This document shows positions 1-14,325 of a stretch of 14,325 bases of DNA, piece after piece (the stretch's first letter is position 1; each line of letters begins with the position of its first letter). Origin of the DNA: Armatimonadia bacterium (lineage in GTDB: Bacteria > Armatimonadota > Zipacnadia > Zipacnadales > UBA11051). The translations under genes and the position numbers were made by a program. The stretch lies in NCBI GenBank assembly GCA_039683575.1, contig JBDKRC010000256.1, forward strand, positions 1-14,325, given 5' to 3'. Under the pieces are notes generated by a model. It was not told where the DNA came from, ran no database searches, and was given only the letters and a program-made list of their open reading frames with translations.

Positions 1-264
1 GCGACTGAGGTCTCGCTCTCCCACGGTGGCCATGTGATGCCGCTGCGCTGGGCGGGACCTGACGAGGCCTATGTCGTTTGTGACAGCGTCAGGGTCGGGG
101 ACCGCCTGAATATGACCTATGCGCTGCCAGAGCTTGTGCAGAGCCACGCCCTGCGGTCTGTACCAGGCAAGGAGAAGCCGATGACGCTGCACTGGCGGGG
201 CAACGACCTGCTGGCGATGAGCCCCTCGGGCACTTATCTGCCCATGTTCGGCGTTAGAAGATGA
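1..264 (+). CDS. 3' fragment of a CDS entering from the left edge; function unknown, possibly the C-terminal beta-rich domain of a glycoside hydrolase-like protein
   Basis: Frame +1 is open from base 1 (ATEVSLSHGGHVMPLRW...) to TGA at 262-264 and is co-oriented with the downstream cluster. The tail (LHWRGNDLLAMSPSGTYLPMF) looks like real protein. The family assignment is only a guess from context. Confidence 0.65.
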   Translation, partial: ATEVSLSHGGHVMPLRWAGPDEAYVVCDSVRVGDRLNMTYALPELVQSHALRSVPGKEKPMTLHWRGNDLLAMSPSGTYLPMFGVRR

Positions 265-315
265 TGATGCTGCGGGTGAGTACCCCCTGCCGGCAGCGTC
301 AAGGAAGGAACCACT

Positions 316-1272
316 ATGAGCCTGAGACTTGTGAATTTCGTGCCAAAGACCTGGCCCGAAGCAGCACCACGCGTTGGCGCTTTGATTGAGAATGCCATTG
401 TTGATATCGCGGAGGCCTGCGAGGCCGCCGATAGTGACTGTGGTTGCGCCGGCTCAGTAGTTGACCTGCTCGCCTGCCCGGACTGTCTGCAGGCAGCGCG
501 TGAGGCGCTGGCCGAGGTGGGGCCAAACGTCGCAGCCCTGCCTTTGGCGGAGGCCATATTGCTGGCTCCCGTGATCCAGCCTGGCAAGCTGCTGTGTCTG
601 GCGGGCAACTACGAGGAGCATATCCGCGAGGGCAAGAACAAGGAACTCTCCGGCGAGGTGCACGCCTCGGACAAGGCCACACCGCGGGTCTTCATGAAGC
701 CCTCCACCAACACTGTCTGTGGGTCCGAGGCACCGGTTATCGTCGGGAAGACCTCGACCTTTGTGGACTACGAGGGTGAACTGGCGATCATCATCGGCAA
801 GCGTGGCAAGTATATCAAGGCCGCCGACGCCATGGACTACGTTGGCGGCGTGACCTGTCTGAATGACATCTCCGAGCGGCGACTGCACATCTGGGACCGC
901 CCCGAGACGCGCCAGTGGGATCGCTTCTTTGACTGGCTTAACGGCAAATGGTTCGACAATTCCGCCCCCATGGGCCCCTGCGCGGTGCCGCTGGCAGACA
1001 TCGGCGACCTCGGCAGTCTACGCCTGGTTACTCGCCTCAACGGCAAAGTCATGCAGGACGCGAGCACCGGGCAGATGATCTTCGGGGTGCCGGAGATAGT
1101 CGAGTACATTTCGCACATGGTCACACTTGAGCCAGGCGACGTCATCGCCACAGGCACGCCTGCAGGAGTGGGGCATTCCCAGGACATTGCGATGCATCCG
1201 GGGGACGTAGTCGAAGTCGAGATCGAGGGAATCGGCATCCTCCGCAATCCGGTCATCGCTGAAGAGGCCTGA
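316..1272 (+). CDS. Fumarylacetoacetate hydrolase (FAH) family protein
   Basis: Motifs PGKLLCLAGNYEEH, VFMKP, DYEGELAIIIGK, NDISER, GKWFD..PMGP, TLEPGDVIATGTPAGVG, VEVEIEGIGILRNPV. Purine-rich RBS AAGGAAGGAA (301-310) precedes the ATG. Confidence 0.95.
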   Translation: MSLRLVNFVPKTWPEAAPRVGALIENAIVDIAEACEAADSDCGCAGSVVDLLACPDCLQAAREALAEVGPNVAALPLAEAILLAPVIQPGKLLCLAGNYEEHIREGKNKELSGEVHASDKATPRVFMKPSTNTVCGSEAPVIVGKTSTFVDYEGELAIIIGKRGKYIKAADAMDYVGGVTCLNDISERRLHIWDRPETRQWDRFFDWLNGKWFDNSAPMGPCAVPLADIGDLGSLRLVTRLNGKVMQDASTGQMIFGVPEIVEYISHMVTLEPGDVIATGTPAGVGHSQDIAMHPGDVVEVEIEGIGILRNPVIAEEA

Positions 1273-1282
1273 GGTGATGTAT

Positions 1283-2584
1283 ATGCGTCATCGTCGACTT
1301 GCTGTTGCGCTCATTCTGCTGGTATGCATTTGCCTCACGGGGTGCGCGAAGAAGCCCCCCCCTTCAAGCGACAGCCTGGTCTTCATGGTGCGGGCGACCG
1401 CCGACCAGTTGAAGGTCTGGCAGGAAGCCGTAGACCTGTTCACAGAGCAATCCAAGATCAAAGTCACGCTCCAGAATGAGCCGTACGATACCTATTTCAG
1501 CAAGTTGCAGACGATGATCGCCGGGGGCACGCCGCCCGACGTGGTCTTCATGGAGTCCACGCGTTTCCCGGAGTTCGTCACCAAAAACACCCTGCTCAAC
1601 CTCACCCCGTACCTCCAGAAGGAGACTGAGTTCACTGGCACGGACTTCTATCCGGAAGCCTGGCAGTCATATCGCTACCAGGGCCAGCAGTACGGGCTGC
1701 CCAACGACATCGCAGTCCTCGGGCTGATGTACAACCAGGACCTGTTCGAGATCGACTTCGTGAAAGCCCCGACGACGAACTGGACGTGGAATGACTATCT
1801 GAAGGCCGCCCGGACGCTGACCAAAGACACCGACGAAGATGGACGCATAGACCAGTGGGGCACCACGGTCTGCCCGTGGTGGCAGGTGTTTGTCTGGCAG
1901 AATGGGGGAGAGTTGGTGGATAATGTCCAGCAGCCCACACGCTCGACTCTCGCCACCTCCGCAGCGCAGGGCGCGCTGCAGTTCCTGGCCGACCTCAGTC
2001 TCAAGCAGAAGGTGGCGCCGAGCGCTTCGCTAACCGAGAGCATGGGACGCTGCGAGGCCTTCACGGCTGGCAAGGTCGCCATGATCTATGCCGGCCATTG
2101 GGACTGCCCGCAGCTCAACAAGATGAAGGACAGCCGTTGGGAAGCCGCGCCACTACCCAGGGGCAAGCAGCAGGCCAACCTCGGGTTGGGCTCTGGCTAC
2201 TGCATCACCAGCGGCTCAAAGCGCGCCGATGACGCCTGGCAGTTCCTACTCTTCATGTCCGCGGGCGAAGGCCAGAAGAAGCTACTCAGCGCAGGCTTCT
2301 CAACGCCGGCAAATGAGGCTCTGGCCAACTCCGAGTACTTTGCCGGCGGGATGTCCGCCGGTCCCGGCGCCTTCCTGCAAGGCCTCAAGTTCATCCACCC
2401 GGTACCCTTCACTACTCGCTACACCGAGATAGCCACCATCTGGGACCAGGAACTGCAGCTTCTGTGGTCTGGTCAGGCCACGGTGCAGCAGGTGACCGCA
2501 AAGATCGACGAGCGGGTGAACAAGGTACTGTCTGAGGCTAATCCGGCAACTGCCTGGCTCCTGCCGCTGACGCCAAGAGGTTAG
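1283..2584 (+). CDS. Sugar ABC transporter substrate-binding lipoprotein (extracellular solute-binding protein family 1)
   Basis: Basic N-terminus, hydrophobic stretch and lipobox LTG-C. Motifs KLQTMIAGGTPPDV, YGLP.D, LMYNQDLF, WTWNDY, F..GKVAM, plus a DTDEDG loop. ATG 1283 chosen because GAGGTG (1271-1276) lies 6 nt upstream; the ORF track starts at GTG 1274. Confidence 0.93.
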   Translation: MRHRRLAVALILLVCICLTGCAKKPPPSSDSLVFMVRATADQLKVWQEAVDLFTEQSKIKVTLQNEPYDTYFSKLQTMIAGGTPPDVVFMESTRFPEFVTKNTLLNLTPYLQKETEFTGTDFYPEAWQSYRYQGQQYGLPNDIAVLGLMYNQDLFEIDFVKAPTTNWTWNDYLKAARTLTKDTDEDGRIDQWGTTVCPWWQVFVWQNGGELVDNVQQPTRSTLATSAAQGALQFLADLSLKQKVAPSASLTESMGRCEAFTAGKVAMIYAGHWDCPQLNKMKDSRWEAAPLPRGKQQANLGLGSGYCITSGSKRADDAWQFLLFMSAGEGQKKLLSAGFSTPANEALANSEYFAGGMSAGPGAFLQGLKFIHPVPFTTRYTEIATIWDQELQLLWSGQATVQQVTAKIDERVNKVLSEANPATAWLLPLTPRG

Positions 2585-2634
2585 CAGACCGGCCACGGGA
2601 GGTATTGCGGCGAGTCGCAGTGAACCAACGCAGC

Positions 2635-3978
2635 ATGAACGTCATCGTGATCGTCTCGGACACCTGCCGGCAGGATCACCTCGGCTGCTATGGCAACGAG
2701 TGGATGCACACCGAGAGCCTCGACCGCCTGGCGAGCCAGTCCGTCATCTTCGACAACTGCTATGCCGCCTCGCTGCCAACCCTCCCGCACCGGGCTGACT
2801 GCTTCCTCGGCAAGCTCTCCTGCCCAAGCTTCGGCTGGGGGCCAATGCCGCGCGAAGGCAGCACCCTCGCCGAACTGCTCACCCAGGCCGGCTATACTAC
2901 CCAACTCATCCACGATACGCCCCACCTGACGGCGAAGGGCCACTACTACGAGCGAGGCTTCCAGGGCTACCACTGGGTGCGCGGTCAGGAAGGCGACTGT
3001 CCTTTCACGCGTGCCAATGACGTCCCGCCGATGGACTGGCCCACGTCCAAGGACCGTTACGACGAGCCTCTGTATTACAACCACATGCTCCAGCGCCTGG
3101 ACCATCCCGGCGAGCTTGGCCACCACAGCGCCCGCACGGTAAAGGAGGCCTGCCGGTGGCTGGAGACCAACCACGAAGCCGAGCGCTTCATGCTCTGGGT
3201 GGATCTCTTTGACCCACACGAACCGTGGGACGCGCCCGACTGGTTCACGAGTCTGTACTATCCCGGCGACTTCCCCCCTGACCTTGTTCGCCACCCGCGC
3301 TACGACTACACCGACTTTCTCACTGCTGAGGAACTGCAGTGGTGCCATGCGGCGTACTGTGGCGAGTTGACCCTCGTAGACAAGTGGATCGGCGTACTCC
3401 TACGCAAAATCGAGGACCTCGGGCTTTTTGCCGACACTGCGGTCATCTTCACCTCCGACCACGGCTTCTACCTTGGCGAACACGGCCGCATCGGCAAGAG
3501 CGGCACGGCAGACGACCCGTGGCCGTTGTACGAGGAGATCATCAAGGAGCCCCTGCTAATCCGACTGCCCGATGGCCCGCGCGGCGTGCGTCAGAACCCA
3601 CTCGTTCAGCCCCTCGACCTTCGGCCGACGATACTGGACCTGTGCGAGGTCCCAGACGACCAGCGCGGCCATGGCAAGAGCCTCGCGAACATACTCAATG
3701 GTGAGGATGTGCGCCTGCGAGAGATCGCCATCTCGGGCGGCTGCCTGCTCGACCGGGAACGCAGCGGGGTGACAGTGACCGTTACGCATGAAGACGGCTG
3801 GGCGCTTGTAATGGGGCCGACGGACGCCGAAAATGAACTGTACTATCTGCCCGATGACCCTCGCCAGATGCGCAATGTCATCAGAGACAATGAAATGACC
3901 GTGCTCGAGATCCAAGCCATGTTCCGCATGGCGTTGACCTTCCTGGACGTTCCGCCAGAGGTCGTCAAGCAGTGGTAG
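2635..3978 (+). CDS. Sulfatase-like hydrolase (alkaline phosphatase superfamily) with a T-x-P-x-R motif
   Basis: MNVIVIVSDTCRQDHLGCYG, FDNCYAASLPTLPHR, FDPHEPWD, YCGELTLVDKWIG, VIFTSDHGFYLGEHG, LYEE..KEPLLIR, ELY....DP....N. Start is uncertain (TTG 2605, GTG 2620 or ATG 2635). No signal peptide seen. Confidence 0.9.
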   Translation: MNVIVIVSDTCRQDHLGCYGNEWMHTESLDRLASQSVIFDNCYAASLPTLPHRADCFLGKLSCPSFGWGPMPREGSTLAELLTQAGYTTQLIHDTPHLTAKGHYYERGFQGYHWVRGQEGDCPFTRANDVPPMDWPTSKDRYDEPLYYNHMLQRLDHPGELGHHSARTVKEACRWLETNHEAERFMLWVDLFDPHEPWDAPDWFTSLYYPGDFPPDLVRHPRYDYTDFLTAEELQWCHAAYCGELTLVDKWIGVLLRKIEDLGLFADTAVIFTSDHGFYLGEHGRIGKSGTADDPWPLYEEIIKEPLLIRLPDGPRGVRQNPLVQPLDLRPTILDLCEVPDDQRGHGKSLANILNGEDVRLREIAISGGCLLDRERSGVTVTVTHEDGWALVMGPTDAENELYYLPDDPRQMRNVIRDNEMTVLEIQAMFRMALTFLDVPPEVVKQW

Positions 3979-4018
3979 TAGCCGACCGGACGCTTTCCAT
4001 ATCACGCAGGAGACCACC

Positions 4019-5116
4019 ATGCATAGGCTCGTAGCCGAACTTCCGGACCTGTTTCAGTTCAACGACGGCAACCGTCTGCAGAGGCCTGAAGACTGGCCTC
4101 GCCGCCGCGACGAGACCATGGAGGCGATACTGTCTACCGAGTATGGCCATCTGCCCCCGCAGCCAGCGGGGATACGTGCGGAGGACCTGCACCCGTCGGC
4201 GGTGAAGCGCTTTGGTGGCGCCCGCTATATGCAGTACCGCCTGGTAATCGAGGGTGGCAAGCAGCCATTCTGGTTCATCGTTCAGCTACTCGTCCCAACC
4301 GGTGACGGCCCTTTCCCGGTCGTCATCAATGGCGACCTGTGCTGGCGCTATGCGACCGACGAAGTGATCATGGAAGTATTGGGACGCGGCTACGCCCTTG
4401 CCCTTTTCAACCGGACTGAGATCGTCCCTGACAACTATCGCAGCGAACGCGACACGGCGCTGTACCTGACCTATCCTGAGGGGGATTTCGGTGCCCTTGC
4501 GGCCTGGGCATGGGGGTACCACCGCGTGGTGGATTTCCTGCTCACGCAAGACTTCATTGATCCGGAACGGATAGCGGTCGTGGGGCATTCAAGAGGCGGC
4601 AAGTGCGTGCTGCTGGCTGGCGCGACCGACGAGCGCATCGCGGTCACGGCTCCCAATGACTCCGGCTGCGGGGGAGCGGGGTGCTATCGCTGGCATGGTG
4701 AGGGATGTGAGAAGGTCGAGGACATCATGCGCCCGGTGCCGTACTGGTTCACGCCGCACCTGGCGGACTACATCGGCAACGAGGGTGCAATGCCATTCGA
4801 CCAGCACAGCCTCAAGGCGCTGGTGGCGCCGCGGCCGCTGGTCTCAACTGAGGCCCTGGGGGACCTGTGGGCCAACCCCACCGGCACCTACCAGACCTTC
4901 GACGCCGCTCGCGAGGTCTATCGCTGTCTGGGAGTAGAGGACCGCATCGGCATCTGGTATCGCGAGGGCGAGCATAGCCACGGTATCGAGGACTGGAGAG
5001 CTTTCCTGGACTTTACCGACCTGCAACTCAGGGGCATTCAAACAGAACGGTCCTTCACCGACAACCCGTTCCCCGAGATGGCCCGGGCGTTCAGTTGGTC
5101 GGCTCCAGGCAAGTGA
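4019..5116 (+). CDS. CE15 / glucuronoyl esterase-like alpha/beta hydrolase
   Basis: Nucleophile elbow GHSRGGK, GALAAWAWG, DERIA...NDSGCGG, PFDQHSLKALVAPRP, GDLWANP, REGEH. RBS AGGAG upstream. No signal peptide seen. Confidence 0.9.
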   Translation: MHRLVAELPDLFQFNDGNRLQRPEDWPRRRDETMEAILSTEYGHLPPQPAGIRAEDLHPSAVKRFGGARYMQYRLVIEGGKQPFWFIVQLLVPTGDGPFPVVINGDLCWRYATDEVIMEVLGRGYALALFNRTEIVPDNYRSERDTALYLTYPEGDFGALAAWAWGYHRVVDFLLTQDFIDPERIAVVGHSRGGKCVLLAGATDERIAVTAPNDSGCGGAGCYRWHGEGCEKVEDIMRPVPYWFTPHLADYIGNEGAMPFDQHSLKALVAPRPLVSTEALGDLWANPTGTYQTFDAAREVYRCLGVEDRIGIWYREGEHSHGIEDWRAFLDFTDLQLRGIQTERSFTDNPFPEMARAFSWSAPGK

Positions 5117-5126
5117 GCGGATACGG

Positions 5127-5158
5127 AAATGGGAGGGGCCGCGAAGCCCCTCCCATTT
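5127..5158. terminator. Probable bidirectional intrinsic terminator
   Basis: Perfect 13-bp inverted repeat AAATGGGAGGGGC (5127-5139) / GCCCCTCCCATTT (5146-5158) with a 6-nt loop, lying between the convergent CE15 and pdxT stops. Confidence 0.8.
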
Positions 5159-5182
5159 GAGAAGGCTGAAGTGGGGGAGAGT

Positions 5183-5776
5183 CTAACCTTCCTCCACCAT
5201 CTTCAGGAAATACCGCTGTACCCGCCGGTCGTCTGTCAACTCGGGATGGAACGCGATGCCCAGCAACCGTCCCTGGCGCGCCGCAACGATCTTGTCGCGG
5301 TAGACTGATAGCACCTCGACGCCCTCGCCTACGGACTCGATGTATGGCCCGCGGATGAATACCGCGCGCGTCTCCCCGTCCTCAAGCCCCTTCACCGGCA
5401 GATCGGTCTCAAAGCTGTCTACCTGCCGCCCGAAGGCATTGCGCTTGACCCGGACGTCCATCAGGCCGAGGCGCTGCTGCTCGGGCCGGTCGGCGATGTC
5501 TTTGGCCATGTAGATAAGCCCCGCACACGTGCCCCAGATCGCCATGCCCTTCTCGTACTGCTTGATGATCGCCTGGTCCAGCCCAAAGCGCTCGCAGAGC
5601 TTGCCGATGGTGGTCGACTCGCCGCCGGGGATGATAAGCCCATCCAGCGTCTCAATCTGGGCCACGGTCTTGACGGCGAAGGCCTCAGCGCCTTCGACCT
5701 CATTCATCGCGGCAATATGTTCAGCGAAATCGCCCTGAATGGCGAGTACTCCGATGCGTTTCATCTGGTCGGTCAT
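5183..5776 (-). CDS. pdxT: Pyridoxal 5'-phosphate synthase glutaminase subunit
   Basis: IGVLAIQGDF.EH, IIPGGESTT, WGTCAG (catalytic Cys), RNAFGRQVDSFE, AVFIR.P, FHPELT (His/Glu). Start is probably ATG 5776 (or 5764), not 5863. Confidence 0.97.
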   Translation of the reverse strand: MTDQMKRIGVLAIQGDFAEHIAAMNEVEGAEAFAVKTVAQIETLDGLIIPGGESTTIGKLCERFGLDQAIIKQYEKGMAIWGTCAGLIYMAKDIADRPEQQRLGLMDVRVKRNAFGRQVDSFETDLPVKGLEDGETRAVFIRGPYIESVGEGVEVLSVYRDKIVAARQGRLLGIAFHPELTDDRRVQRYFLKMVEEG

Positions 5777-5801
5777 CTTCTTTCTGTATGGGTGCAACGA
5801 C

Positions 5802-5826
5802 AAACCGGCCCGGGAGGGGCCGGCTT
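5802..5826 (-). terminator. GC-rich hairpin between the HEPN gene and pdxT; possible terminator or mRNA-stability element
   Basis: The minus strand reads AAGCCGGCCC-CTCCC-GGGCCGGTTT, a 10-bp stem with one G-U pair. The U-tract is short. Confidence 0.45.
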
Positions 5827-5875
5827 GGGAGCAGTTCGTGCTCACGCCGTTAGCTATAGTCATTCCGCAAGCGCA

Positions 5876-6277
5876 TCACCCCGATAGTGCGCTGATCACA
5901 TAATCGAGCACGTGGTGGGCGTGCTGTGTCGCCTCATCGGGTGGCAGGAAATCGGCGTCCGAGGCTTCTACTGGGTAACGCGGATCAACGGCCAACGCTT
6001 GCAGCGCTTGGCACGGTTCAGCAAGTTCTTCGAACTGCGGCTTGAGGTCAACGCATAGTCCCAGCAGGAGGATGAGATCATGGGTCCTTGGGGGACGCAC
6101 GTCAGCCCACTGCAGGAAGGCCTTCAGGGCCTTTTCGGCAGCCTGTTGGCAGTGGAACAGGATGACTTCTGAGAAAGCCTCCTGATCCTGGTTGAGTACC
6201 TCCGCAGCCGAGAGGTCTTGCGTGGCCTTATCCAGCCACGCCTGCGCCAGTTCGCGCCGTGCTTGCGGTTCGCTCAT
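5876..6277 (-). CDS. HEPN domain protein (partner of a minimal nucleotidyltransferase)
   Basis: WLDKA..DL..A, FHCQQAAEKALKAFL, PPRTHDL..L, ..RYP, typical of stand-alone HEPN proteins. Lies directly downstream of, and overlaps, the MNT gene. Confidence 0.93.
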   Translation of the reverse strand: MSEPQARRELAQAWLDKATQDLSAAEVLNQDQEAFSEVILFHCQQAAEKALKAFLQWADVRPPRTHDLILLLGLCVDLKPQFEELAEPCQALQALAVDPRYPVEASDADFLPPDEATQHAHHVLDYVISALSG

Positions 6278-6590
6278 AGACTACGCGACCTGTCTCTTCA
6301 ATGATTGAGGGAAATGAACTCCATACCTGGCGAAAGTAGCGCCATCGTTCAGGCGTGAATAGCACCAAATCTACTGGTAGACGCAGGTGACGAAGGCTCC
6401 ACAGTATCTGCCCAATGACCTTGTGTCGGGATTCACTTGTTTGGGCAACAATGGCAATATCCACATCGCTATCCGGCCCTGCCTCGCCACGCGCATAGGA
6501 CCCGAAGAGGATGATCCTCTCCGGGTCCAGTACCTTCACAATCTGCTCGACGATGGCGTCGAGGGCTTGCGGGTCAAGTTGATGCTTCAT
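6228..6590 (-). CDS. Minimal nucleotidyltransferase (MNT) domain protein
   Basis: PERIILFGSYARG...DSDVDI (Pol-beta superfamily GS...DxD), PVDLVL, G.VVYE. Overlaps the HEPN start by 50 nt. Confidence 0.93.
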   Translation of the reverse strand: MKHQLDPQALDAIVEQIVKVLDPERIILFGSYARGEAGPDSDVDIAIVAQTSESRHKVIGQILWSLRHLRLPVDLVLFTPERWRYFRQVWSSFPSIIEETGRVVYERTASTARTGAGVAG

Positions 6591-6840
6591 CTTGTCGCCT
6601 GCGCACGCTCAGCCGCCAGCCGAAGAAGGCGCCAGCGGCAAAGCCGGTACCCATCAGCAGGAGCAGCGCAGTTGGCGAAGGACCGATGCCGGCTGCTCCT
6701 GCCATTTCCTCCTGCGCATGAACGTACTGCATGAACTGATGTACTGCGATGAACCAGATGACGATCCAGGCCGCAAAGCCCAGCATCGCGCCGAGAAAGG
6801 CTGACGCAGCGGTCGTCACTGCCGGGCTCTCGTGGCGCAT
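6574..6840 (-). CDS. Small hypothetical membrane protein (88 aa, 2 predicted TM helices)
   Basis: Two hydrophobic segments (AFLGAMLGFAAWIVIWFIAV; LLLLMGTGFAAGAFFGW) and a basic tail RRR. Starts 8 nt after the pdxS stop with AGGA upstream and overlaps the MNT start by 17 nt, exactly filling the gap. Confidence 0.7.
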   Translation of the reverse strand: MRHESPAVTTAASAFLGAMLGFAAWIVIWFIAVHQFMQYVHAQEEMAGAAGIGPSPTALLLLMGTGFAAGAFFGWRLSVRRRQDEAST

Positions 6841-6848
6841 CTGTATTC

Positions 6849-7733
6849 CTACCAGCCCCGGTTCGCCATCCGCTCTTCATCGGGCATGTTGCGGACGTCG
6901 AGACCGGGCATGGCGCCCTTGAGCCCACGGCAGGCCTTCGCTACTTCGGCCGGGTCACTGTAGTATGTGGCCGCATGGACGATAGCCTTCGCGCGCGCCT
7001 CGGGGTCCTCGCTCTTGAAGATCCCGCTGCCCACGAAGATGGCCTCGGCGCCAAGCTGCATCATCAGCGCAGCGTCCGCGGGGGTCGCGATACCGCCGGC
7101 CGAGAAGTTCGGCACCGGCATTTTGCCCGTCTCAGCGATCTGCTTGACCAGCTCGAACGGGGCCGCGAGGTTCTTGCTCTCGGTCATGAGTTCCTCGACG
7201 CGAAGCTGCGTCAGGTGCTTCATCTCGGTCATGACGGTGCGCATGTGGCGCGTGGCCTCGACGATGTTGCCGCTGCCAGCCTCGCCCTTGGTGCGGATCA
7301 TGGCCGCGCCCTCACCGATGCGCCGCAGCGCCTCGGCCAGGCAGGTGCAGCCGCACACGAACGGGACTTTGAAGTCGTGCTTCCAGATATGGAACTGCTC
7401 GTCGGCGGGGGTGAGGACTTCGCTCTCGTCAATGAAGTCCACGCCAACGGACTCGAGAACCTGCGCCTCCGCGAAATGACCGATGCGCGCCTTGGCCATG
7501 ACAGGAATGGTCACGACCTCCATGATCTTCTCGATCACGGACAAGTCGGCCATGCGGGCGACGCCGCCGTCCTTGCGAATGTCGGAGGGCACGCGCTCGA
7601 GCGCCATTACTGACACCGCGCCGGCGTCCTCAGCGATCTTCGCCTGCTCGGGGGTGGTCACATCCATGATCACGCCGCCCCGCAGCATCTCCGCCAGCCC
7701 CACTTTGTTCCGCCATGTTGAAACATCCGTCAC
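6849..7733 (-). CDS. pdxS: Pyridoxal 5'-phosphate synthase lyase subunit
   Basis: [88 protein letters not shown]-terminal RGW. GTG start with AGGAGG SD. Confidence 0.98.
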
Positions 7734-7845
7734 GATCTATCGCCTCCTGGCAAATAAGCACCAAACAAGCCCGGCACTCAGCGTCTATGCCGGTCAGCGG
7801 CTCGCCGAACCGCCGCAGGATCGGGCTTTGTTATCTAGCAAGCAC

Positions 7846-7874
7846 AGTTTACCCCAAAAGGTTCCCACTGGCAA
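7846..7874 (-). promoter_or_regulatory. Sigma70-type promoter for the pdxS operon
   Basis: Minus strand TTGCCA (7874-7869), 17-nt spacer, TAAACT (7851-7846). Predicts a start near 7839 and a ~105-nt 5' UTR. Confidence 0.7.
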
Positions 7875-7896
7875 TAGAGCATCAATGTGCTACAAT
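7868..7896 (+). promoter_or_regulatory. Extended -10 promoter for the + strand GT-C-like gene
   Basis: TG-C-TACAAT at 7888-7896, with a weak -35 CTGGCA (7868-7873) at 17-nt spacing that overlaps the -35 of the divergent pdxS promoter. Confidence 0.55.
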
Positions 7897-7928
7897 CGCT
7901 CTATCAAGTACTTGAGGTCGCGTCAACG

Positions 7929-9290
7929 ATGACAACCCCGCCGCGCTGGGCCTGGAGCCTGCTGCTTGTCGTCTATCTGCTCTTCGCTTTCATCTTCAGC
8001 ATCATCCAGCCGCTGGGCCGCACCCCCGATGAGGCTGCCCACGTCACGTATGCCAAGTTCCTCGCTCAGAACCACCGTCTGCCCATCTTCGACGCCATGG
8101 GTGGGGGAGAGGCCGGCTATGAGGCCCAGCACCCGCCCCTGTACTATGCCGCCATGGCAGTTGTGTACGGGCTGACGGGCTTCCTCGCCGAGAACTGGCG
8201 CTGGCATGCTATGCGCTGGGCAACCATTTTGCTGCTTGGCCTGCCCATGTTCGTCATCTGTCGGCGCTTCTTCACCGAGGCCCTGAGCAAGCGCGGGCTG
8301 TGTGCCACCGCCGATCCTGACGACCATCAGGACGGCTGTGTAGTTGAAGACAACGCAATCCTGCCCTTCATCGCCACCGCCAGTGTGATGCTCATGCCGC
8401 TGACGTTGCTCTACACCGGATACATCAACCCCGATGGCGCAGCCATGGTTTTCGCAACGTTAACCCTGTGGTTGGCATGGCGTCTGCGCCTCTGCGACCC
8501 TGATCCCCGTCAGGCGGCCATCTTGGGTATTGCGGCCGGCCTCGGCGCGCTCTGCAAGGTCTCGGCCGCCCCGGCGCTTGCGATCGCGTTGCTGGCCCAT
8601 GTGCGGCCGCGCCAGGGCCTCCGCAAGGGCTACCGCGTCGCCTGGACCGATCTCGGCCTCACCCTGGCCGCCTTCGCCGTCACCGCTGGATGGTGGTACG
8701 CGCGTAACTGGTATCTCTACCGCAGCCCGCTCGTGCACACCACAGGCATGATGGGCAGCGGCCTCGGGGCCGCGATGCGCTACTCGTTCTGGCAGTTCGC
8801 CTGGCTCACCTGGAGGGAGACCTACCTGAGCACGTGGGTGCAGCGCGGATGGTTCTACGGGGATTTCTGGAACGCCCTGCTATACGGCATCATCATTGCG
8901 ATGACAATCATGGCTATCGTCGGCCTGATCCGCAACAAGCGCGTGGCGAAGAGCGAGACCGGCGCTGCCAGCCCCACTCACCTGCGCAGCGCGCTGAACT
9001 TCTCGGGGCTGCTGCTGGCACTGGTCTTCATAGGCCATCAGTGGGCCTATTGGACCGTGGACGTGGAGTTCAACGCCGGAGGGCGGTACATACTGGTTGC
9101 GATGATGGGCCTGGTCTTGCTGCTTGTCGTCGGCGTCAAATGCCTCACGGGCCGCTATGCCCTGCCGGTGCTGTGGGCATGGGTCGCCAGCCTGATAGTC
9201 ATGAACCTGGTATCGATGTGGAACATCTGGTACATGCTCAACCCGCGGTTCGCTCCCGGATGGCAGATCTTTAACTTTCCTGGTAGCTGA
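7929..9290 (+). CDS. Polytopic membrane protein, GT-C fold (PMT/ArnT-like) glycosyltransferase-like
   Basis: First TM followed by a PDEAAH acidic loop motif, YEAQHPPLYY, NPD, GLGALCK, GWWYARNWYLY, GRY, and many TM segments. ATG 7929 has GAGGT (7914-7918) upstream. Confidence 0.85.
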   Translation: MTTPPRWAWSLLLVVYLLFAFIFSIIQPLGRTPDEAAHVTYAKFLAQNHRLPIFDAMGGGEAGYEAQHPPLYYAAMAVVYGLTGFLAENWRWHAMRWATILLLGLPMFVICRRFFTEALSKRGLCATADPDDHQDGCVVEDNAILPFIATASVMLMPLTLLYTGYINPDGAAMVFATLTLWLAWRLRLCDPDPRQAAILGIAAGLGALCKVSAAPALAIALLAHVRPRQGLRKGYRVAWTDLGLTLAAFAVTAGWWYARNWYLYRSPLVHTTGMMGSGLGAAMRYSFWQFAWLTWRETYLSTWVQRGWFYGDFWNALLYGIIIAMTIMAIVGLIRNKRVAKSETGAASPTHLRSALNFSGLLLALVFIGHQWAYWTVDVEFNAGGRYILVAMMGLVLLLVVGVKCLTGRYALPVLWAWVASLIVMNLVSMWNIWYMLNPRFAPGWQIFNFPGS

Positions 9291-10658
9291 GGGTATGTCG
9301 GGTCTGGCATAGCGCGGGATCAGGTCAGTCTTCAGGTTGTAGATCGAGAGCACATTGAACAGGAGCATCAGCCCTGCGCCGAGCATCAGGGCGTGTGGCA
9401 CCCGCTTCTCGCCTATGATCGGCCTCCACCCCGCCGCGACCAACGGGATCAGCGCAATCAGCATGGTCTGCGCGTGCTTGCCCGTCTCCTCGTTGTTGTG
9501 CGGGAAGACCATCACCCAGTGCAGCGCCGCCAGCACCATGCTCAGGGCCATCACAATGAATCCGATGAGCAGTCCGGGAGGAACGCCTTCCGCGTTCCGG
9601 AACCGCTCTCTGATCTGTACAACTAGCCCATAGCCGACGATCGCGGTCAATGCCAGCAAGGCCGCATAGAAGGGATGGGCTGTCCATGGCGGTAGCCAGC
9701 CCACCTGGCTCCACACGCTCAGCCACAGGCCTCTCAGCGTAAACCACACCTGCCAGAGCAAGGCACCGGGGAAGAAAATCAGGTCGGCCCAACTGACCTG
9801 CGACGTGCTCTGTTCGGTCGCGAAGGGACTGTGGTACAGCAACAGGTTGCGCACATACCACCATCCGCTCACCAGCAGCGTCCCGCCGACTGCCGTCCCC
9901 AGATTGTGCCACACTTGCGCCGCCTGCCCCCTGGCCCGCGTTACCAGCACCAAGGCCACGATTGCCCCAGGCACCAGTAGCAGGCCCGTCTGCTTGGTCA
10001 AAAGCGCCAGTCCGAGCGCCAACCCCGCCACAAACCACTGCTTCGCGCCGGCTTCCTGGTAGCAGTTTCTTATCAACACATATAAGAACAGTGACGCCGT
10101 GGTCGCCGCCATGACGTCGGTGTAGATCACGCTGCTTATCATGAGGCGGTGCGGGACCAGGCAGAATAGGGCGGTGGCGGCGAAGGCCATCCAGACTCTC
10201 TCGCCCGCCTCGCTCGTGGCGCGGAAGATCAGCAGAAAGCTCTTCCACGCCAGTAGGACCATCAACGCCCCCAGCACCACCGAATAGAGCCTCAGCACAT
10301 ACTGCTGGTCATGCAGCGTCAGGTTCTCTGTGAGCTTGTAGATCACCGCTCCGGTCCAGTAGTAGACTGGCCCATGCGCCGCCGTCCCCGCCGGGTCTGC
10401 CGTAGTGTAGTACTCCGACAAATCGCGGAAGGGGTTGCTGATCACCGGCAGTCGCCAGTTCTCGGCCACATACTTCATGTGCGAGTAGTGCAGCGGCTCA
10501 TCCGGCACAGACCCCCAGAGCGGCAGCAGGAACGCGTAGTATCCTGCCAGCGTCACATGCACTGCCAGCAGCACCGGCAGCATCCACTGCGGTGCCCGCC
10601 CATCCTGGGGGATAGGGGCTTTTGGTGCTTCATTCGTCACGGCTTGGTCTTCTGACAT
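8880..10658 (-). CDS. Polytopic membrane protein, GT-C fold glycosyltransferase-like; paralogue of 7929-9290 with a long 3' run-on
   Basis: PDEPLH, HGPVYY, LRLYSV..G, YTD, GLALLTK, GWWYVRNLLLY, SVWSQVGW. Likely start ATG 10658 (GGAAGG upstream). Similarity to the paralogue ends near 9306, but the first in-frame stop is at 8880. Confidence 0.8.
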   Translation of the reverse strand: MSEDQAVTNEAPKAPIPQDGRAPQWMLPVLLAVHVTLAGYYAFLLPLWGSVPDEPLHYSHMKYVAENWRLPVISNPFRDLSEYYTTADPAGTAAHGPVYYWTGAVIYKLTENLTLHDQQYVLRLYSVVLGALMVLLAWKSFLLIFRATSEAGERVWMAFAATALFCLVPHRLMISSVIYTDVMAATTASLFLYVLIRNCYQEAGAKQWFVAGLALGLALLTKQTGLLLVPGAIVALVLVTRARGQAAQVWHNLGTAVGGTLLVSGWWYVRNLLLYHSPFATEQSTSQVSWADLIFFPGALLWQVWFTLRGLWLSVWSQVGWLPPWTAHPFYAALLALTAIVGYGLVVQIRERFRNAEGVPPGLLIGFIVMALSMVLAALHWVMVFPHNNEETGKHAQTMLIALIPLVAAGWRPIIGEKRVPHALMLGAGLMLLFNVLSIYNLKTDLIPRYARPDIPSATRKVKDLPSGSEPRVEHVPDVPHRYQVHDYQAGDPCPQHRQGIAAREAFDADDKQQDQAHHRNQYVPPSGVELHVHGPIGPLMAYEDQCQQQPREVQRAAQVSGAGSAGLALRHALVADQADDSHDCHRNDDAV

Positions 10659-10779
10659 CCCGTTGCCCTTCCGAGTGGTTCGTAAATTGCCGTAGTACTC
10701 AACAATGAGAGCGCCGCGAAGCGTTCCGGGGAGGGCTCTCAGCGGCCCAGATAACCGCTCGCAGGCCCGAAACCCAGTC

Positions 10780-10808
10780 TTGACAGGCCTCCCCCAAAGG
10801 AGTACCTT
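10780..10808 (+). promoter_or_regulatory. Sigma70-type promoter for the corA leader transcript
   Basis: Perfect -35 TTGACA (10780-10785), 17-nt spacer, -10 TACCTT (10803-10808). Confidence 0.75.
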
Positions 10809-10810
10809 CA

Positions 10811-11011
10811 TAGTCGCTGGATTTTTCCAGCTTATTCCCGGTTAATGGCGTTGAAGAGCTATGAGCGACGAACTGCCTAGTAAACCGCACTTACCAAAGT
10901 TGAACGCCTTGCCGGCCAGATTCACAGCGGAGGATCTTTGCATCTGATCCCTCATGCTCGTGAAGCTTTGACTACATGTCCTGGCCCCTAAGGCCGGGAT
11001 TTTTCGTTTTT
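10811..11011 (+). promoter_or_regulatory. Structured cis-regulatory leader (transcription attenuator / riboswitch candidate) upstream of the CorA-family gene
   Basis: Lies between a clear promoter and the CorA start. It is more AT-rich than the flanking CDS, has several complementary segments and ends in an intrinsic terminator. It does not match the M-box core sequences as I recall them. Confidence 0.7.
10978..11011 (+). terminator. Intrinsic terminator within the corA leader (attenuator)
   Basis: GTCCTGGCC (10978-10986) - CCTAA - GGCCGGGAT (10992-11000), followed by TTTTCGTTTTT. It ends ~50 nt upstream of the co-oriented start codon. Confidence 0.85.
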
Positions 11012-11059
11012 CTGCTCCCCGGCATGGCGTTCCTCACCCGTACCACAAAGGAGGTAGCC

Positions 11060-12085
11060 ATGCCCCTCACCCTCCCGCAGTCCTGCTACGACGTCCAGGA
11101 TGGGCTCGTCGCGCCGGCCGATGGTCCGCGCGCGCCTATTGTCGTGTACAACGATCCCACGCCTGATCAACGAGAGTTCCTGACCACGGAACTGCAGATT
11201 GACGAGCACACGCTCCAGTCCGCCCTCGACCCCGATGAGATGGCGCGCCTGGAGTTTGAGCCCGATCACGCGGCCATCATCCTCAAGCGCGCTAACCGCA
11301 TCGTTGATGAAGACAACAATCAGGAATTCCACGTCGTCTCCCTCGGGGCCTTCCTGTTCCAGAACAAGCTCGTCTTCATCCACACCGATACCTTGCAGTT
11401 ATTCGGGGGACGCAGGCCCAGCTTCCGCTGCGCCTCCCTGCAGGGCGCCTTACTTGACGTGCTCTATCAGACCATCGCACAGTTCATGCGCGACATCCGG
11501 CTGATTCACCACCTCTCAGAGACCATCGAGGACCATATCGCCTATTCGCTCGGCAATAGGGCACTCTCGAGCATGTTCGACCTGCAAAAGGGCCTCGTGT
11601 ACTACCAGACGTCTCTCCAGTCGAACCAGGCCCTCTTTGCCAAGCTTCGCATGCACGCCGACCGCATCGGCTTCTCCCGCGAAGAGCGCGAGTTGCTCGA
11701 TGACATCATTGTTGAAAATGAGCAATGTCTGAAGCTGGTCGAGATGTACTCGAACATCCTCACCGGGATGTCCGATGCCCGGGTCTCAATCATCAGCAAC
11801 AACCTCAACATCATCATGAAGAAGCTGACTGTAATCAGTATCATCTTCATGCCACTGAACATCATTGCGTCCATGGGCGGCATGTCCGAGTGGAGCACGC
11901 TCACCCACAAGGTCCCCTGGTCGCTCTCCTACGGGGCTTTCACCGCGGGGCTCTTTGTCATCGCATGGGTAACATGGTTGCTGATCCGCAACATCGGAGT
12001 CGAGGAACGGCCCGAGGGGGTCCGCAAGCGACGGCGCCGGTTGCGGCGTCTGCCGTCGCTGCTCTCCGCCGTCTTCCGGCACTGA
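11060..12085 (+). CDS. corA: CorA-family (2-TM-GxN superfamily) divalent cation transporter with a GMS variant motif
   Basis: ALDPDE..RLE, L.KGLVYY..SL..N, ELLDDIIVENEQ, SIISNNLN..MKKLT.ISIIFMP, two C-terminal TM helices with GGMSE between them, and a basic tail. Strong SD AAGGAGGT before ATG 11060. Confidence 0.92.
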   Translation: MPLTLPQSCYDVQDGLVAPADGPRAPIVVYNDPTPDQREFLTTELQIDEHTLQSALDPDEMARLEFEPDHAAIILKRANRIVDEDNNQEFHVVSLGAFLFQNKLVFIHTDTLQLFGGRRPSFRCASLQGALLDVLYQTIAQFMRDIRLIHHLSETIEDHIAYSLGNRALSSMFDLQKGLVYYQTSLQSNQALFAKLRMHADRIGFSREERELLDDIIVENEQCLKLVEMYSNILTGMSDARVSIISNNLNIIMKKLTVISIIFMPLNIIASMGGMSEWSTLTHKVPWSLSYGAFTAGLFVIAWVTWLLIRNIGVEERPEGVRKRRRRLRRLPSLLSAVFRH

Positions 12086-12111
12086 CTAACAAACACGTTC
12101 CACATGAGAAC

Positions 12112-12166
12112 AGAGGCCCTTGCCACGCACTACGAGCGAGCTCGCTATGCACGGCAAGGGCCTTTT
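12112..12166. terminator. Long hairpin between the convergent corA and FGGY kinase genes; probable terminator
   Basis: AGGCCCTTGCC (12114-12124) / GGCAAGGGCCT (12153-12163) is a perfect 11-bp inverted repeat followed by TTT. It encloses the palindrome AGCGAGCTCGCT (12135-12146). Confidence 0.65.
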
Positions 12167-12196
12167 CCATTGCTTAGCCTGACTGCGCCGTCCGAG

Positions 12197-13714
12197 CTAA
12201 CCGTGCATCAGGTCTTTCAGCGCCGGATACGTGGCGACGTACTTCTCAAACTGGGCGTCATAATGGTCCTTAAGCCTCGGGTCGGGCAGGACCTCGCGGG
12301 TCACCTTGACCATTGCCTCAGCTGCCTGGGCCGGATTGTCAAAGTACCCCGCGCCTGACGCCGCCAGAATAGCGGTGCCCAGCGCCGTGGCCTCCGGCTC
12401 CTCGGTCAGGTAGATCGGTATCCCCGACGCATCGGCATGAATCTGCAGCCACAAAGCGCTACGAGTGCCACCACCGCAGGCGTAGACCGCCTCGGGCTCA
12501 AAGCCGGCAGCTTTGAGGTCCTCGATGATGTGGCGGCTGCCCAGAGCCGTACCCTCGTACACCGCCCGCAAGAGGTGTCCGATCTCGTGTTTGAGACTGA
12601 GACCCCAGATGACGCCGCGCGCCAGAGGATCACGTATCGGGCTGCGGTTGCCCTGCCAGTAATCAAGCAGCGTGAGGCCCTCGGCTCCAGGCGGCACTGC
12701 TGCAGCCTTCTCGTCCAGCACCGTGAACCGGTCAGCCCCGCGCTTCTCGGCCTCAACCTGCTCCCGGTACCCGAAGTTATCCGCCAGCCAGGTGACGATT
12801 GCTCCTGTGGCCGCCTGCGCGCCCTCCAGCACCCATGTCCCCGGCAGCAGCGCATCCGGATACGGCCCCCAAACGTGCGAATCGAACAGCCCCTCGGCAG
12901 AGAGAGCCTCATGGCAGGTAGACGTCCCTATGACCAGCGCCATCGTGTTCGGCCGCACCACTCCCACGCCAAACATGCCGGCGTAGGCGTCAATCCCGCC
13001 CTGCGCAATCGGGATTCCGGGCTTGAGGCCAAGCTCAGCCGCTGCCGTGGCGCTGAGTTCTCCCGCGGGCGCCCCCATCGGCAGCACCTCGGTCGGCCAC
13101 TTGTCACGCAGTTCGCTCAGGTTGAGCGTTGCGAGCAGCCGGTCCGGCCATCCGCCCTCCGGGTTAGCATAGTTCCACTTGGCCGTGACATTGTTCAGCG
13201 AGACCAACCAATCGCCCGTCAGGCGATACATCAGCCAGTCCACGCCCTCGACGATGAGGTCGGCCTGCTCGTAGGTAGCGGGCTCGTTTTCGCGCAACCA
13301 CAGGGCCTTTGGCAGCATCCACTCCGGCGACTCCTGCCAGCCAACGTACTTCAGGACCGGATCGCGCGTATCGGTCACGCGCTGGGCCTGCTCGTGCGCG
13401 CGCTGGTCCATCCACAGCAGGACAGGCCGCAAAACCCGCCCGTCGCGCTTGCAGGCCACCACCGTGCACGAGGTGCCGTCCAGGCTGAGGCCCGCGATGT
13501 CAGCGGGCGTTAGCCCCGCCTCGGCCAGCGCCTGCGGCACACAAGCCTTCGCGGCGTTCCACCAGTCCTCGGCATTCTGCTCAGCCCACGAAACGTTGGG
13601 GAAGTTGATAGGGGTGGGACGGGTGGCAGCGGCGACGATCTTGCCGCTAAGGTCGGCAATGACCACGCGCAGGCTTTGCGTGCCGCAGTCGATTGCGAGG
13701 AAATAGGGGCCCAT
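12197..13714 (-). CDS. FGGY-family carbohydrate kinase (ribulokinase/xylulokinase-like)
   Basis: LAIDCGTQSLR, WAEQNAEDWW, DGTSCTVV, LLWMDQRA, GGIDAY, GTSTC, DYWQGNRSP, RAVYEG, GGGTRS.LWLQIHAD, EATALGTAILA. Confidence 0.95.
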   Translation of the reverse strand: MGPYFLAIDCGTQSLRVVIADLSGKIVAAATRPTPINFPNVSWAEQNAEDWWNAAKACVPQALAEAGLTPADIAGLSLDGTSCTVVACKRDGRVLRPVLLWMDQRAHEQAQRVTDTRDPVLKYVGWQESPEWMLPKALWLRENEPATYEQADLIVEGVDWLMYRLTGDWLVSLNNVTAKWNYANPEGGWPDRLLATLNLSELRDKWPTEVLPMGAPAGELSATAAAELGLKPGIPIAQGGIDAYAGMFGVGVVRPNTMALVIGTSTCHEALSAEGLFDSHVWGPYPDALLPGTWVLEGAQAATGAIVTWLADNFGYREQVEAEKRGADRFTVLDEKAAAVPPGAEGLTLLDYWQGNRSPIRDPLARGVIWGLSLKHEIGHLLRAVYEGTALGSRHIIEDLKAAGFEPEAVYACGGGTRSALWLQIHADASGIPIYLTEEPEATALGTAILAASGAGYFDNPAQAAEAMVKVTREVLPDPRLKDHYDAQFEKYVATYPALKDLMHG

Positions 13715-13761
13715 TACGGCTCACGCTCCGAGTACAGTCTGTAGAAGCCGCGCTCCCCCAC

Positions 13762-14271
13762 CTACCACCGCTCGCGGTGCACACGATCCATCGGGCCAGG
13801 CCCGCGATTCTTGCCCTCGCTGGCCGGGTATCCGAGACTGAAGATGCACAGCACGCGCATGTTGTCCGGGATGTCCAGTATCTCCCGAACCAGGTCCTCA
13901 CGGTCATAGCCGCGCTCATCGCTGCCGCGAATGCCGATCCAGCAGGTGCCGAGGCCAAGCGCAGCCGCCTGAATCATGGCGTTCTCGGTCGCAGCGGCGC
14001 AGTCCTCGATCCACCAGTGGTCTGAGTCGACTTCATCCGCGCACATGGCGATGACGGCAGGCGCCTGGGCACAGAACCCGGCGTACTGGTGGACCTGCGA
14101 CAGGGCCAGGCGCCGGGCTTCGTCCGTCACGACAATCACATGCCACGGACGCACGTTATTGGCCGTCGGAGCCGACAACGCTGCCTCCATCACCTCCTGA
14201 AGCGCCTCTGCAGGCACCGCCTCGGGCTTGTACTGCCGCACACTCCTGCGCAGGGCAATTGCTTCCAGCAT
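13762..14271 (-). CDS. Nitroreductase family flavoprotein
   Basis: RRSVRQY, AALSAPTANN.RPW, DCAAATEN..IQAAALGLGTCWIG, SLGYP. ATG 14271 has AAGGAG 8 nt upstream. Confidence 0.95.
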   Translation of the reverse strand: MLEAIALRRSVRQYKPEAVPAEALQEVMEAALSAPTANNVRPWHVIVVTDEARRLALSQVHQYAGFCAQAPAVIAMCADEVDSDHWWIEDCAAATENAMIQAAALGLGTCWIGIRGSDERGYDREDLVREILDIPDNMRVLCIFSLGYPASEGKNRGPGPMDRVHRERW

Positions 14272-14298
14272 CCTCGTCACTCCTTCCGTCTTTCCGCT

Positions 14299-14323
14299 GT
14301 AGGGCGGGGGCTTGTTACCCGCC
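14299..14323 (+). repeat. GTAG-type REP-like palindrome at the window edge
   Basis: GTAG immediately followed by GGCGGG-GGCTTGTTA-CCCGCC, in intergenic sequence. Only one copy is visible, so its repetitive nature is not shown. Confidence 0.45.
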
Positions 14324-14325
14324 GC

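Follow-up and report, generated by a model that had tools for sequence, protein, structure and literature searches.

The window analysed here, a stretch of 14,325 nucleotides (nt) from an Armatimonadia bacterium (GenBank assembly GCA_039683575.1, contig JBDKRC010000256.1, positions 1 to 14,325 of the forward strand), contains an intergenic stretch (10660-11059) that separates two divergent genes, one for a PMT_2-type glycosyltransferase and one for a transporter of the CorA family. In this study, we investigated the leader of the transporter gene. A first-pass annotation had described it as a terminator/antiterminator leader of a previously undescribed kind and had explained it as a highly diverged M-box or a new ligand-binding riboswitch class. 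Our analysis supports the description and does not support the explanation: the conserved feature of the leader is a short reading frame with an N-terminal peptide motif. This frame of 28 codons, overlooked in the first-pass annotation, lies between the promoter and an intrinsic terminator and runs through most of the leader helices. Computation establishes the terminator, the conserved helices, and the frame together with its conservation. From them we infer that the frame is translated, in which direction the switch works and that Mg2+ is its signal. The leader is probably a leader-peptide attenuator; to the fuller statement, that 10780-11059 is a ribosome-operated transcription attenuator of the CorA-family transporter with Mg2+ as the likely signal, we give about an even chance. 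The features at the locus are the following.

10780-11059, plus strand: whole leader, 280 nt
10816-10831, plus strand: 5'-terminal hairpin GCUGGA-UUUU-UCCAGC, from the fold; the orthologous locus L089 differs in the loop only
10837-10852, plus strand: segment 1 (CCCGG..GGCGUU), which encloses the frame start by pairing with 10903-10915 within the frame
10861-10947, plus strand: leader reading frame, 28 sense codons and TGA (10945-10947), MSDELPSKPHLPKLNALPARFTAEDLCI; the peptide starts MSDELPSKPH
10864-10881, plus strand: conserved N-terminal motif, codons 2-7, S-D-E-L-P-S, with the Ser codon AGT at 10879-10881
10903-10919, plus strand: segment 2 (frame codons 15-20), whose AACGCC..CCGG has two possible partners, segment 1 and 11020-11028
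10921-10964, plus strand: hairpin with the last codons and stop of the frame, in the minimum-energy fold; the antiterminator helix encloses it
10978-11011, plus strand: intrinsic terminator, stem 10978-10986/10992-11000, loop CCUAA, then UUUUCGUUUUU
11017-11031, plus strand: post-terminator segment CCCCGGCAUGGCGUU, a direct repeat of 10837-10852; 11020-11028 pairs with 10906-10914 across the terminator
11060-12085, plus strand: CorA-family gene from ATG at 11060, 341 amino acids, with the Shine-Dalgarno sequence AAGGAGG at 11048-11054
Other side of 10660-11059, minus strand: PMT_2-type glycosyltransferase gene

A conserved reading frame between promoter and terminator

Orthologous loci were gathered from genomes of species of the same order (three), from elsewhere in the phylum (two more) and from metagenomes (five), at 57-86% identity of the transporter protein; the comparisons cover eight loci with six distinct leaders. 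All eight loci follow a common plan that consists of TTGACA-17-TAnnnT, a frame beginning with an invariant ATGAG, a G+C-rich hairpin with a T-run, a Shine-Dalgarno sequence and the transporter gene. The orthologous frames are 27-29 codons long and their stops lie 105-116 nt from the transporter start. The -35 box precedes the frame start at one of two spacings, 73-81 or 145-146 nt. Both alternative frames hold stops in each of the six distinct leaders, and the shuffle probability of frames of 27-30 codons in all six, a product that treats the leaders as independent, is ~1e-7.5. Two marks of an attenuator are thereby found, namely a short leader frame that is conserved as a frame in six of six distinct orthologous leaders and an intrinsic terminator between this frame and the structural gene.

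The promoter read by the first-pass annotation, TTGACA (10780-10785) and TACCTT (10803-10808) separated by 17 nt, is present, and a TTGACA-17-TAnnnT sequence stands at the equivalent place in all eight orthologous leaders that reach there. A strict promoter scan returned 0 promoter-like sites and did not list TTGACA-17-TACCTT. The transcript is predicted to start near 10815-10816, where the annotated 5' hairpin GCTGGA/TCCAGC begins; this hairpin belongs to the minimum-energy fold and was not seen in orthologues more distant than L089.

The leader peptides of the orthologous loci (L) and genomes (G) are given below.

L089: identical to that of the window
L090: MSESQRSKPNLSN...
L091: MSDPNSTQSTPAN...
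L092 and G004: MSDPHSTNPDLAN... and MSEPHSTNPNLAN..., near-twins
G024: MSDYHSTRSGLSG...
G041 (the same as L093): MSDGDSTKPKPSD...

Proline occurs at codons 6, 9, 12 and 18 of the window peptide, and beyond codon 7 its positions are not conserved among the orthologues. An ALPAR-like stretch (ALPAR, AVPAR or AVLAR) is found in three of the six peptides where the antiterminator RNA lies, and the C-terminal half of the peptide is otherwise not conserved. This, together with peptides as short as 8 residues in some of the Bacteroidota relatives described below, argues against a functional small protein, and we rejected that candidate.

Comparison of the window with L089 indicates that selection on the frame goes further than its peptide. 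The region upstream of the -35 box is unalignable between the two (51%), and identity is 79.5% over the transporter gene and 56.6% at its third positions. In the frame itself, 86 of 87 nt agree, the single change being synonymous, and its nucleotides are therefore constrained beyond coding. Such constraint is compatible with a sequence that both encodes a peptide and joins alternative helices; it is also the best argument for a sensor made of RNA only, which is weighed below. The pair L083/L092, with frames 96.7% and genes 94.4% identical, is too close to add much.

The transporter gene is rare, being present in 4 of 61 relatives and in 6 of 401 genomes of the phylum. A DNA similarity search with the leader over 41 genomes hit only the genome of the window and none of 40 relatives. 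In the source genome, a 6.2-Mb assembly that is 96% complete, a regular-expression scan found three frames, and only that of the window is then followed by a terminator and the transporter gene. This genome additionally encodes one canonical CorA, on contig C143, and no such leader frame precedes that gene. At least 10 tandem G+C-rich units of ~38-40 nt each (GGGGTACGGAGCCCCCGCCCTACAGCCGGAGCGGCGGC-like) lie there ~420 nt before the canonical corA start (L169). The genome yielded no match to PF01769 (MgtE), compared with 29 of 40 relatives that have one, an absence that 96% completeness leaves unproven. It likewise gave zero matches genome-wide to RF00380, the M-box family, which was matched in the control genomes of B. 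subtilis and L. lactis.

Leader helices and modelled ribosome positions

The RNA of 10811-11011 folds at -70.1 kcal/mol, compared with -53.4 +/- 4.1 kcal/mol for shuffled sequences (z -4.08; 0 of 200 shuffles as good). Most of the pairings proposed in the first-pass annotation are borne out. GGCGTT/AACGCC (10847-10852 with 10903-10908) and the inner hairpin (10930-10936/10946-10953) are both in the minimum-energy fold. The terminator, with a 9-pair stem (10978-11000) and a T-run, is the sole terminator-like site in 10400-11300 (shuffle mean 0.5), and GGCCAG (10914-10919)/CTGGCC (10981-10986) is the pairing predicted for the nascent transcript before the terminator 3' arm is made. Complementarity is present in the sequence for two further putative competing pairings, TCCCGGTT with the terminator 3' arm and GGTTAA/TTGACT within the leader. 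The long closing helix (10855-10866/10956-10969) is at best weakly supported. Its complementarity amounts to -14.0 kcal/mol, which 3% of shuffles equal, it is absent from the minimum-energy fold, and an equivalent better than shuffles exists in only two of six distinct orthologous leaders. For these reasons the pseudoknot that was proposed to cross this helix is without comparative support.

RNAalifold on eight leaders identified three common helices: the terminator, a small hairpin and a long-range helix (10906-10914/11020-11028; columns 59-67/185-193 of alignment A2) that joins frame codons 16-18 to the post-terminator segment. The terminator helix is retained in all eight aligned leaders, with 90.6% of cells paired and changes on both sides at three of eight pairs; in the long-range helix 84% of cells are paired and four of eight pairs have changed on both sides. 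For the whole consensus structure, 87% of cells are paired, compared with 29-53% when partners are slid. Ten pairs in total have changed on both sides, and the covariation score was reached by 0 of 500 shuffles, a count that relatedness inflates. The duplex of segment 1 with 10903-10915 has an energy of -19.5 kcal/mol (2.6% of shuffles as good), and its equivalents are better than shuffles in L092 (3.6%), weakly so in L091 (10%) and not in three others of the six leaders. In the hairpin that contains the frame's stop, L089 carries a C-to-T change at the equivalent of 10950, by which the pair is kept as G-U.

We modelled the influence of translation by folding nascent leaders up to the terminator loop with 27 nt held single-stranded as the ribosome. 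In five of six distinct leaders, the terminator 5' arm pairs with frame codons 18-25 when the ribosome is absent or covers codons 1-13, and this partner is lost when the modelled ribosome covers codons 15-21. Given that the partner lies within codons 18-25, a ribosome that completes the frame should promote termination, and one that aborts early should promote read-through. We propose a mechanism in which transcription would start near 10816 and meet the intrinsic terminator at 10978-11011. Before the 3' arm of the terminator exists, its 5' arm would pair with GGCCAG at frame codons 18-20, and this antiterminator would stack on the hairpin that contains the frame's stop codon. A ribosome reaching the distal half of the frame and its stop would remove the antiterminator, so that the terminator forms and the gene is off. 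A ribosome that does not start, or that aborts or stalls on the acidic, proline-containing M-S-D-E-L-P-S, would leave the antiterminator in place and allow read-through into the transporter gene. Cytoplasmic Mg2+, the most likely signal, may act on the passage of the ribosome through the N-terminal motif; when it is low, the leader would be translated poorly and more transporter made, as is described for MgtL of mgtA and proposed for CorL of corA in enterobacteria.

Two metatranscriptome runs of one study contain RNA contigs, 10875-11061 and 10862-11043, that bridge the terminator from the frame interior to the transporter start. Because these contigs cross the terminator, read-through transcripts probably exist. 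No RNA contig lies upstream of 10862, and DNA contigs of the same study cover 10441-11075, which is a weak hint; the extent of the RNA contigs is compatible with a start at the predicted promoter plus some read-through. This evidence consists of contigs, not reads, from which transcript ends and the ratio of terminated to read-through transcripts are not derivable. A variant strain in the RNA runs has many differences in 10479-10778 and, within the leader, differs only at 10825 (in the hairpin loop), 11007 (one T fewer) and 11015. Bases 1-19 of L091 also occur on RNA contigs of run X1 as loose ends, at window positions 11073 and 11184; we take this end sequence to resemble a library adapter left in assemblies.

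The N-terminal motif in other phyla

Leader frames with the motif M-[S/D]-x-[D/E]-[P/Y]-x-S are also present upstream of CorA-family genes of Clostridia, Treponema and Bacteroidota. A first filter, set to accept frames that start with ATG, GTG or TTG and have an acidic residue among codons 2-5 and AGT among codons 5-8, found a leader frame in 66 of 165 loci that encode relatives of the transporter; the final AGT-anchored filter, with TTG starts dropped and codon 2 constrained, found one in 63 of 165. Clostridial frames begin MSADPRS (GTG-AGT-GCA-GAC-CCT-CGA-AGT), MSPEPGS or MNADPGS, and those of Treponema begin MDTDPGS or MDSYPSS. Frames like MDDYHS are present in all six Bacteroidota loci, 28-58 nt before the gene. 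More distant Armatimonadota have MDDYHQS (G170) and MDDHHQP (G380), and these, together with MSDYHST of G024, bridge the Bacteroidota form and that of the window.

The part shared across phyla is ~21 nt long and varies with a 3-nt period. Third positions vary both in the acidic codons (GAC 18, GAG 9, GAT 4, GAA 3) and in the proline codons (CCT 17, CCC 9, CCG 3, CCA 2). The serine after [DE]-P-x is encoded by AGT in 44 of 44 frames, with any Ser codon allowed, in genomes of high and of low G+C content. No pairing partner was found for this AGT codon (10879-10881 in the window). It is often preceded by CGA or GGA, and the Bacteroidota frames use TCN in its place. A Shine-Dalgarno word lies at -17 to -4 in 52 of 55 non-Armatimonadota loci, compared with 8 of 55 in a control window.

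A collection-wide scan for the 17 nt that begin the Bacteroidota frame gave 80 loci, and in 69 of them the match opens a frame of at most 45 codons. Forty-six loci combine a frame no longer than 20 codons with a complete gene downstream; in 38 of these the gene encodes a CorA protein (PF01544), and the consensus of their alignment reads YGMN; the motif is therefore tied to CorA-family channels generally, canonical ones included. The leader is not universal in the subfamily of the window's transporter. At 35-47% identity, in loci that include Desulfobacterota and WOR-3, a short frame rich in aspartate, glutamate and proline (D/E/P) is present in only 16 of 83, and few of these look related.

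The output of the Bacteroidota leaders differs from that of the window. In two of three examples folded, a ribosome at the leader stop opens a hairpin, and the freed CCUCU pairs with the Shine-Dalgarno sequence of the transporter gene. Two unrelated platforms would thus obey the same rule, in which complete leader translation means off and absent or early-aborted translation means on. We put forward, tentatively and at less than even confidence, that the leader of the window may be a member of a cross-phylum family of ribosome-read sensors that control CorA-family channels. Such a family would be defined by an M-[S/D]-x-[D/E]-[P/Y]-x-Ser start with an invariant AGU, and would have been wired independently to intrinsic terminators in Armatimonadota and, in Bacteroidota and Clostridia, to sequestration of the Shine-Dalgarno sequence.

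Two further arrangements were seen among these relatives. L086 (G170) and L087 (G380) have two-tiered leaders 100-300 nt upstream of the CorA-like start. The first tier is a frame 12-13 codons long that opens with MDDYHQS or MDDHHQP and has a terminator-like hairpin and T-run of its own; the second is a short frame (MFFIHKIY... or MIYNQHNP...), followed by a second hairpin and T-run before the gene. In L055 and its relatives from Clostridia, the GTG start and the next codon lie in a helix, CACCGUGAGU/ACUCGCGGUG, 70-75 nt upstream of the CorA-like start. L036 retains this start-codon helix with a different sequence, AUGAACGCA/UGCGUUCAU (judged by eye and uncounted).

The signal, other explanations and known systems

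The identity of the transporter bears on what the leader might sense. Its product matches PF01544 at 7e-35, and a structure search matched CorA structures at 6e-16. The CorA equivalog model TIGR00383 scores it at 93.2 bits, under the cut-off of 200.75 and so below what the equivalog assignment asks for, and the protein is divergent. GMN is the canonical CorA pore motif; the pore loop of this transporter has GMSE in its place, and G-M-S-E is invariant in seven of seven aligned orthologues. The motif stands in ASMGGMSEW (window positions 11870-11890; residues 270-277 of the protein); canonical CorA, including the Bacteroidota consensus, has YGMN there. The peptide pattern S[IM][GF]GMSE[WY] occurs in at least 600 metagenome stretches, and GMSE-type proteins form a large CorA subfamily.

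Several results weigh against a Mg2+-responsive attenuator that works as proposed. The antiterminator duplex of the window (-11.9 kcal/mol) is matched by 13% of shuffles, which is not significant alone, and across the six leaders (shuffle fractions 0.13, 0.21, 0.018, 0.46, 0.16 and 0.036) the duplex is individually no better than shuffles in four. In L092 the partner of the terminator 5' arm lies in the 5' untranslated region, outside the frame, and in the window a ribosome mask at the frame's stop codon still permits GGCCAG/CTGGCC in the minimum-energy fold. At equilibrium the terminator wins in five of six leaders at any ribosome position. Its probability is ~1.0 in four of six at nearly all positions, so that the measure is uninformative there; in the window only, a ribosome at codons 11-13 lowers it to 0.03-0.16, an effect absent in the other five leaders. 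As the terminator dominates at equilibrium, the model depends on co-transcriptional kinetics. The Armatimonadota frames are without a clear Shine-Dalgarno sequence (a loose match in three of eight loci), though the transporter gene has AAGGAGG. The near-invariant frame nucleotides and the fixed AGT amount to an RNA or codon constraint that a pure peptide model leaves unexplained. With regard to the signal, the pore motif is GMSE, not GMN, and no recurring MSD..S frame was found in the 330 nt upstream of mgtE in 29 relatives, for which gene starts were chosen roughly. D/E/P residues make up three of the six after Met in the window (S-D-E-L-P-S) and two of six in L092, fewer than in the N-terminus of the enterobacterial leader peptide MgtL; for the Bacteroidota D-D-Y-H-S-E the figure is three of six.

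Some of these points would suit a leader-peptide attenuator of the same design with a signal other than Mg2+, such as the supply of proline or tRNA-Pro, the activity of EF-P, general translation capacity, polyamines or another cation that the GMSE-type channel carries. We consider this a possible but distinctly less probable account. The transporter without GMN and under the equivalog cut-off, the four prolines of the window peptide, the effect of a ribosome at codons 11-13 and the failure to find the motif before mgtE in 29 relatives would all fit it. However, the prolines after codon 7 are not conserved and the codon 11-13 effect is confined to one leader of six. Moreover, the related MDDYHS frame precedes canonical YGMN CorA genes in 38 of 46 cases, and the sole conserved part of the peptide is its acidic, proline-containing N-terminus, as in MgtL. 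For the proposed attenuator, this conserved start is the candidate sensing part, and Mg2+ is the likely signal.

A sensor made of RNA only, with a terminator as its platform and the frame incidental or modulatory, is unlikely, be it a new riboswitch or a leader with direct Mg2+ sensing; this is in essence the explanation of the first-pass annotation. It could draw on the strong fold (z -4.08), on the near identity of the window and L089 from transcript start to terminator, synonymous sites included, on the AGT that is invariant in 44 of 44 frames, on the conserved and covarying long-range helix, and on the Clostridial start codon in a helix that covaries by eye (uncounted). Yet no RNA family accounts for the leader. 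The M-box covariance model RF00380 (gathering score 44 bits) was unmatched in the window and, at E <=10, in 10600-11150, in agreement with the first-pass annotation, which had noted that hallmark M-box segments are absent. A scan with all 4227 Rfam families gave nothing at gathering score in the window and no match of the leader to the mgtA-leader family of enterobacteria. At E up to 10 in 10600-11150, it gave only an anti-hemB hit driven by the terminator, which at 18.9 bits stays below the cut-off of 49.5. In the regions that precede 20 homologous genes, Rfam found no leader family, the only hits being a THF riboswitch on the opposite strand and three tRNAs. What is common across phyla is only ~21 nt with 3-nt periodic variation, and the Shine-Dalgarno words and conserved frame length point to translation. 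The sensor is more probably the translating ribosome, because the frame, its length, the peptide motif and the Shine-Dalgarno sequence are conserved, whereas the length of the upstream RNA varies, with two classes of -35-to-frame distance, and only three helices are common.

That there is no regulated switch at all, and that a constitutive partial terminator or insulator follows a small expressed peptide or RNA, the complementarities being by-products of G+C-rich sequence, is very improbable: antiterminator energies near shuffle values in four of six leaders and the dominance of the terminator at equilibrium would agree with it, but spacing, frame length and helices are conserved across orthologues at 57-86% identity, and in other phyla the motif is joined to another kind of platform.

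If the leader is a sensor of the kind proposed, ribosome-based cation sensing would be a general bacterial strategy, found in Armatimonadota, Clostridia, Spirochaetes and Bacteroidota. If the cross-phylum family is real as well, MgtL-like sensing would be old and widely distributed, an alternative to the M-box that is not restricted to enterobacteria, and the invariant codon would single out a particular step of decoding or drop-off as the one that senses. The natural variants, among them the 8-codon form and the invariant AGU, would then provide a series for finding which residues and codons make a nascent chain Mg2+-sensitive. For the GMSE-type CorA subfamily, the substrate could be inferred from what the leader senses.

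In its predicted layout, the leader resembles the classical attenuators trpL, hisL and pheL, in which a short frame follows the promoter and the ribosome position selects between an antiterminator and an intrinsic terminator ahead of the structural gene. Unlike in these, the frame of the window has no run of codons for one amino acid, its conserved part is the extreme N-terminus, and its nascent fold without translation is predicted to be antiterminated, which is not the case in trp. The Bacteroidota relatives resemble translation attenuation of the ermC type, where ribosome position on a short leader frame controls the pairing of a downstream Shine-Dalgarno sequence; the platform of the window is transcriptional and involves no antibiotic. 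With the M-box (RF00380), the leader shares its position before a gene of Mg2+-transporter type, its size and its terminator platform, and it differs in that the covariance model is unmatched and the conserved core is a reading frame. The 'mgtE motif' of PMC11109978 was considered and rejected as unrelated, being confined to Thioalkalivibrio.

Control of Mg2+ uptake is understood in two forms, the M-box in Firmicutes and their relatives and the upstream frames MgtL and CorL in enterobacteria such as Salmonella and E. coli, where the ribosome is thought to read Mg2+. Literature searches found no account of such a leader outside enterobacteria. MgtL carries EPDP after its initiator Met; ribosomes abort its translation within MEPDPT, and do so more at low Mg2+, which raises mgtA (bioRxiv 10.1101/2021.02.02.429294). 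The leader of the window is like that of mgtA in having a short frame before a gene of Mg2+-importer type, acidic residues and proline at the N-terminus, and alternative helices that overlap the frame. The proposed logic is also alike, efficient leader translation being off and poor translation at low Mg2+ being on. However, the output in mgtA is Rho-dependent termination (PMC11552253), whereas the window has an intrinsic terminator with a T-run and so falls outside the Rho-dependent kind. The frame of the window, at 28 codons, also has a different motif with fewer D/E/P residues and belongs to another phylum, and mgtA encodes a P-type ATPase in place of a CorA-family channel. Translation of corL is inversely related to corA expression (PMC11552253). 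Two further likenesses are that corL, too, is an upstream frame preceding a gene of the CorA family and that the corA leader has two structures which exclude each other (PMC11552253). However, corL acts through Rho-dependent termination and starts with UUG (PMC11552253), whereas the frame of the window has an ATG start and an intrinsic terminator. By this comparison, the leader would work like MgtL and CorL, and differs from them in its intrinsic terminator, its frame length, its motif and its phylum.

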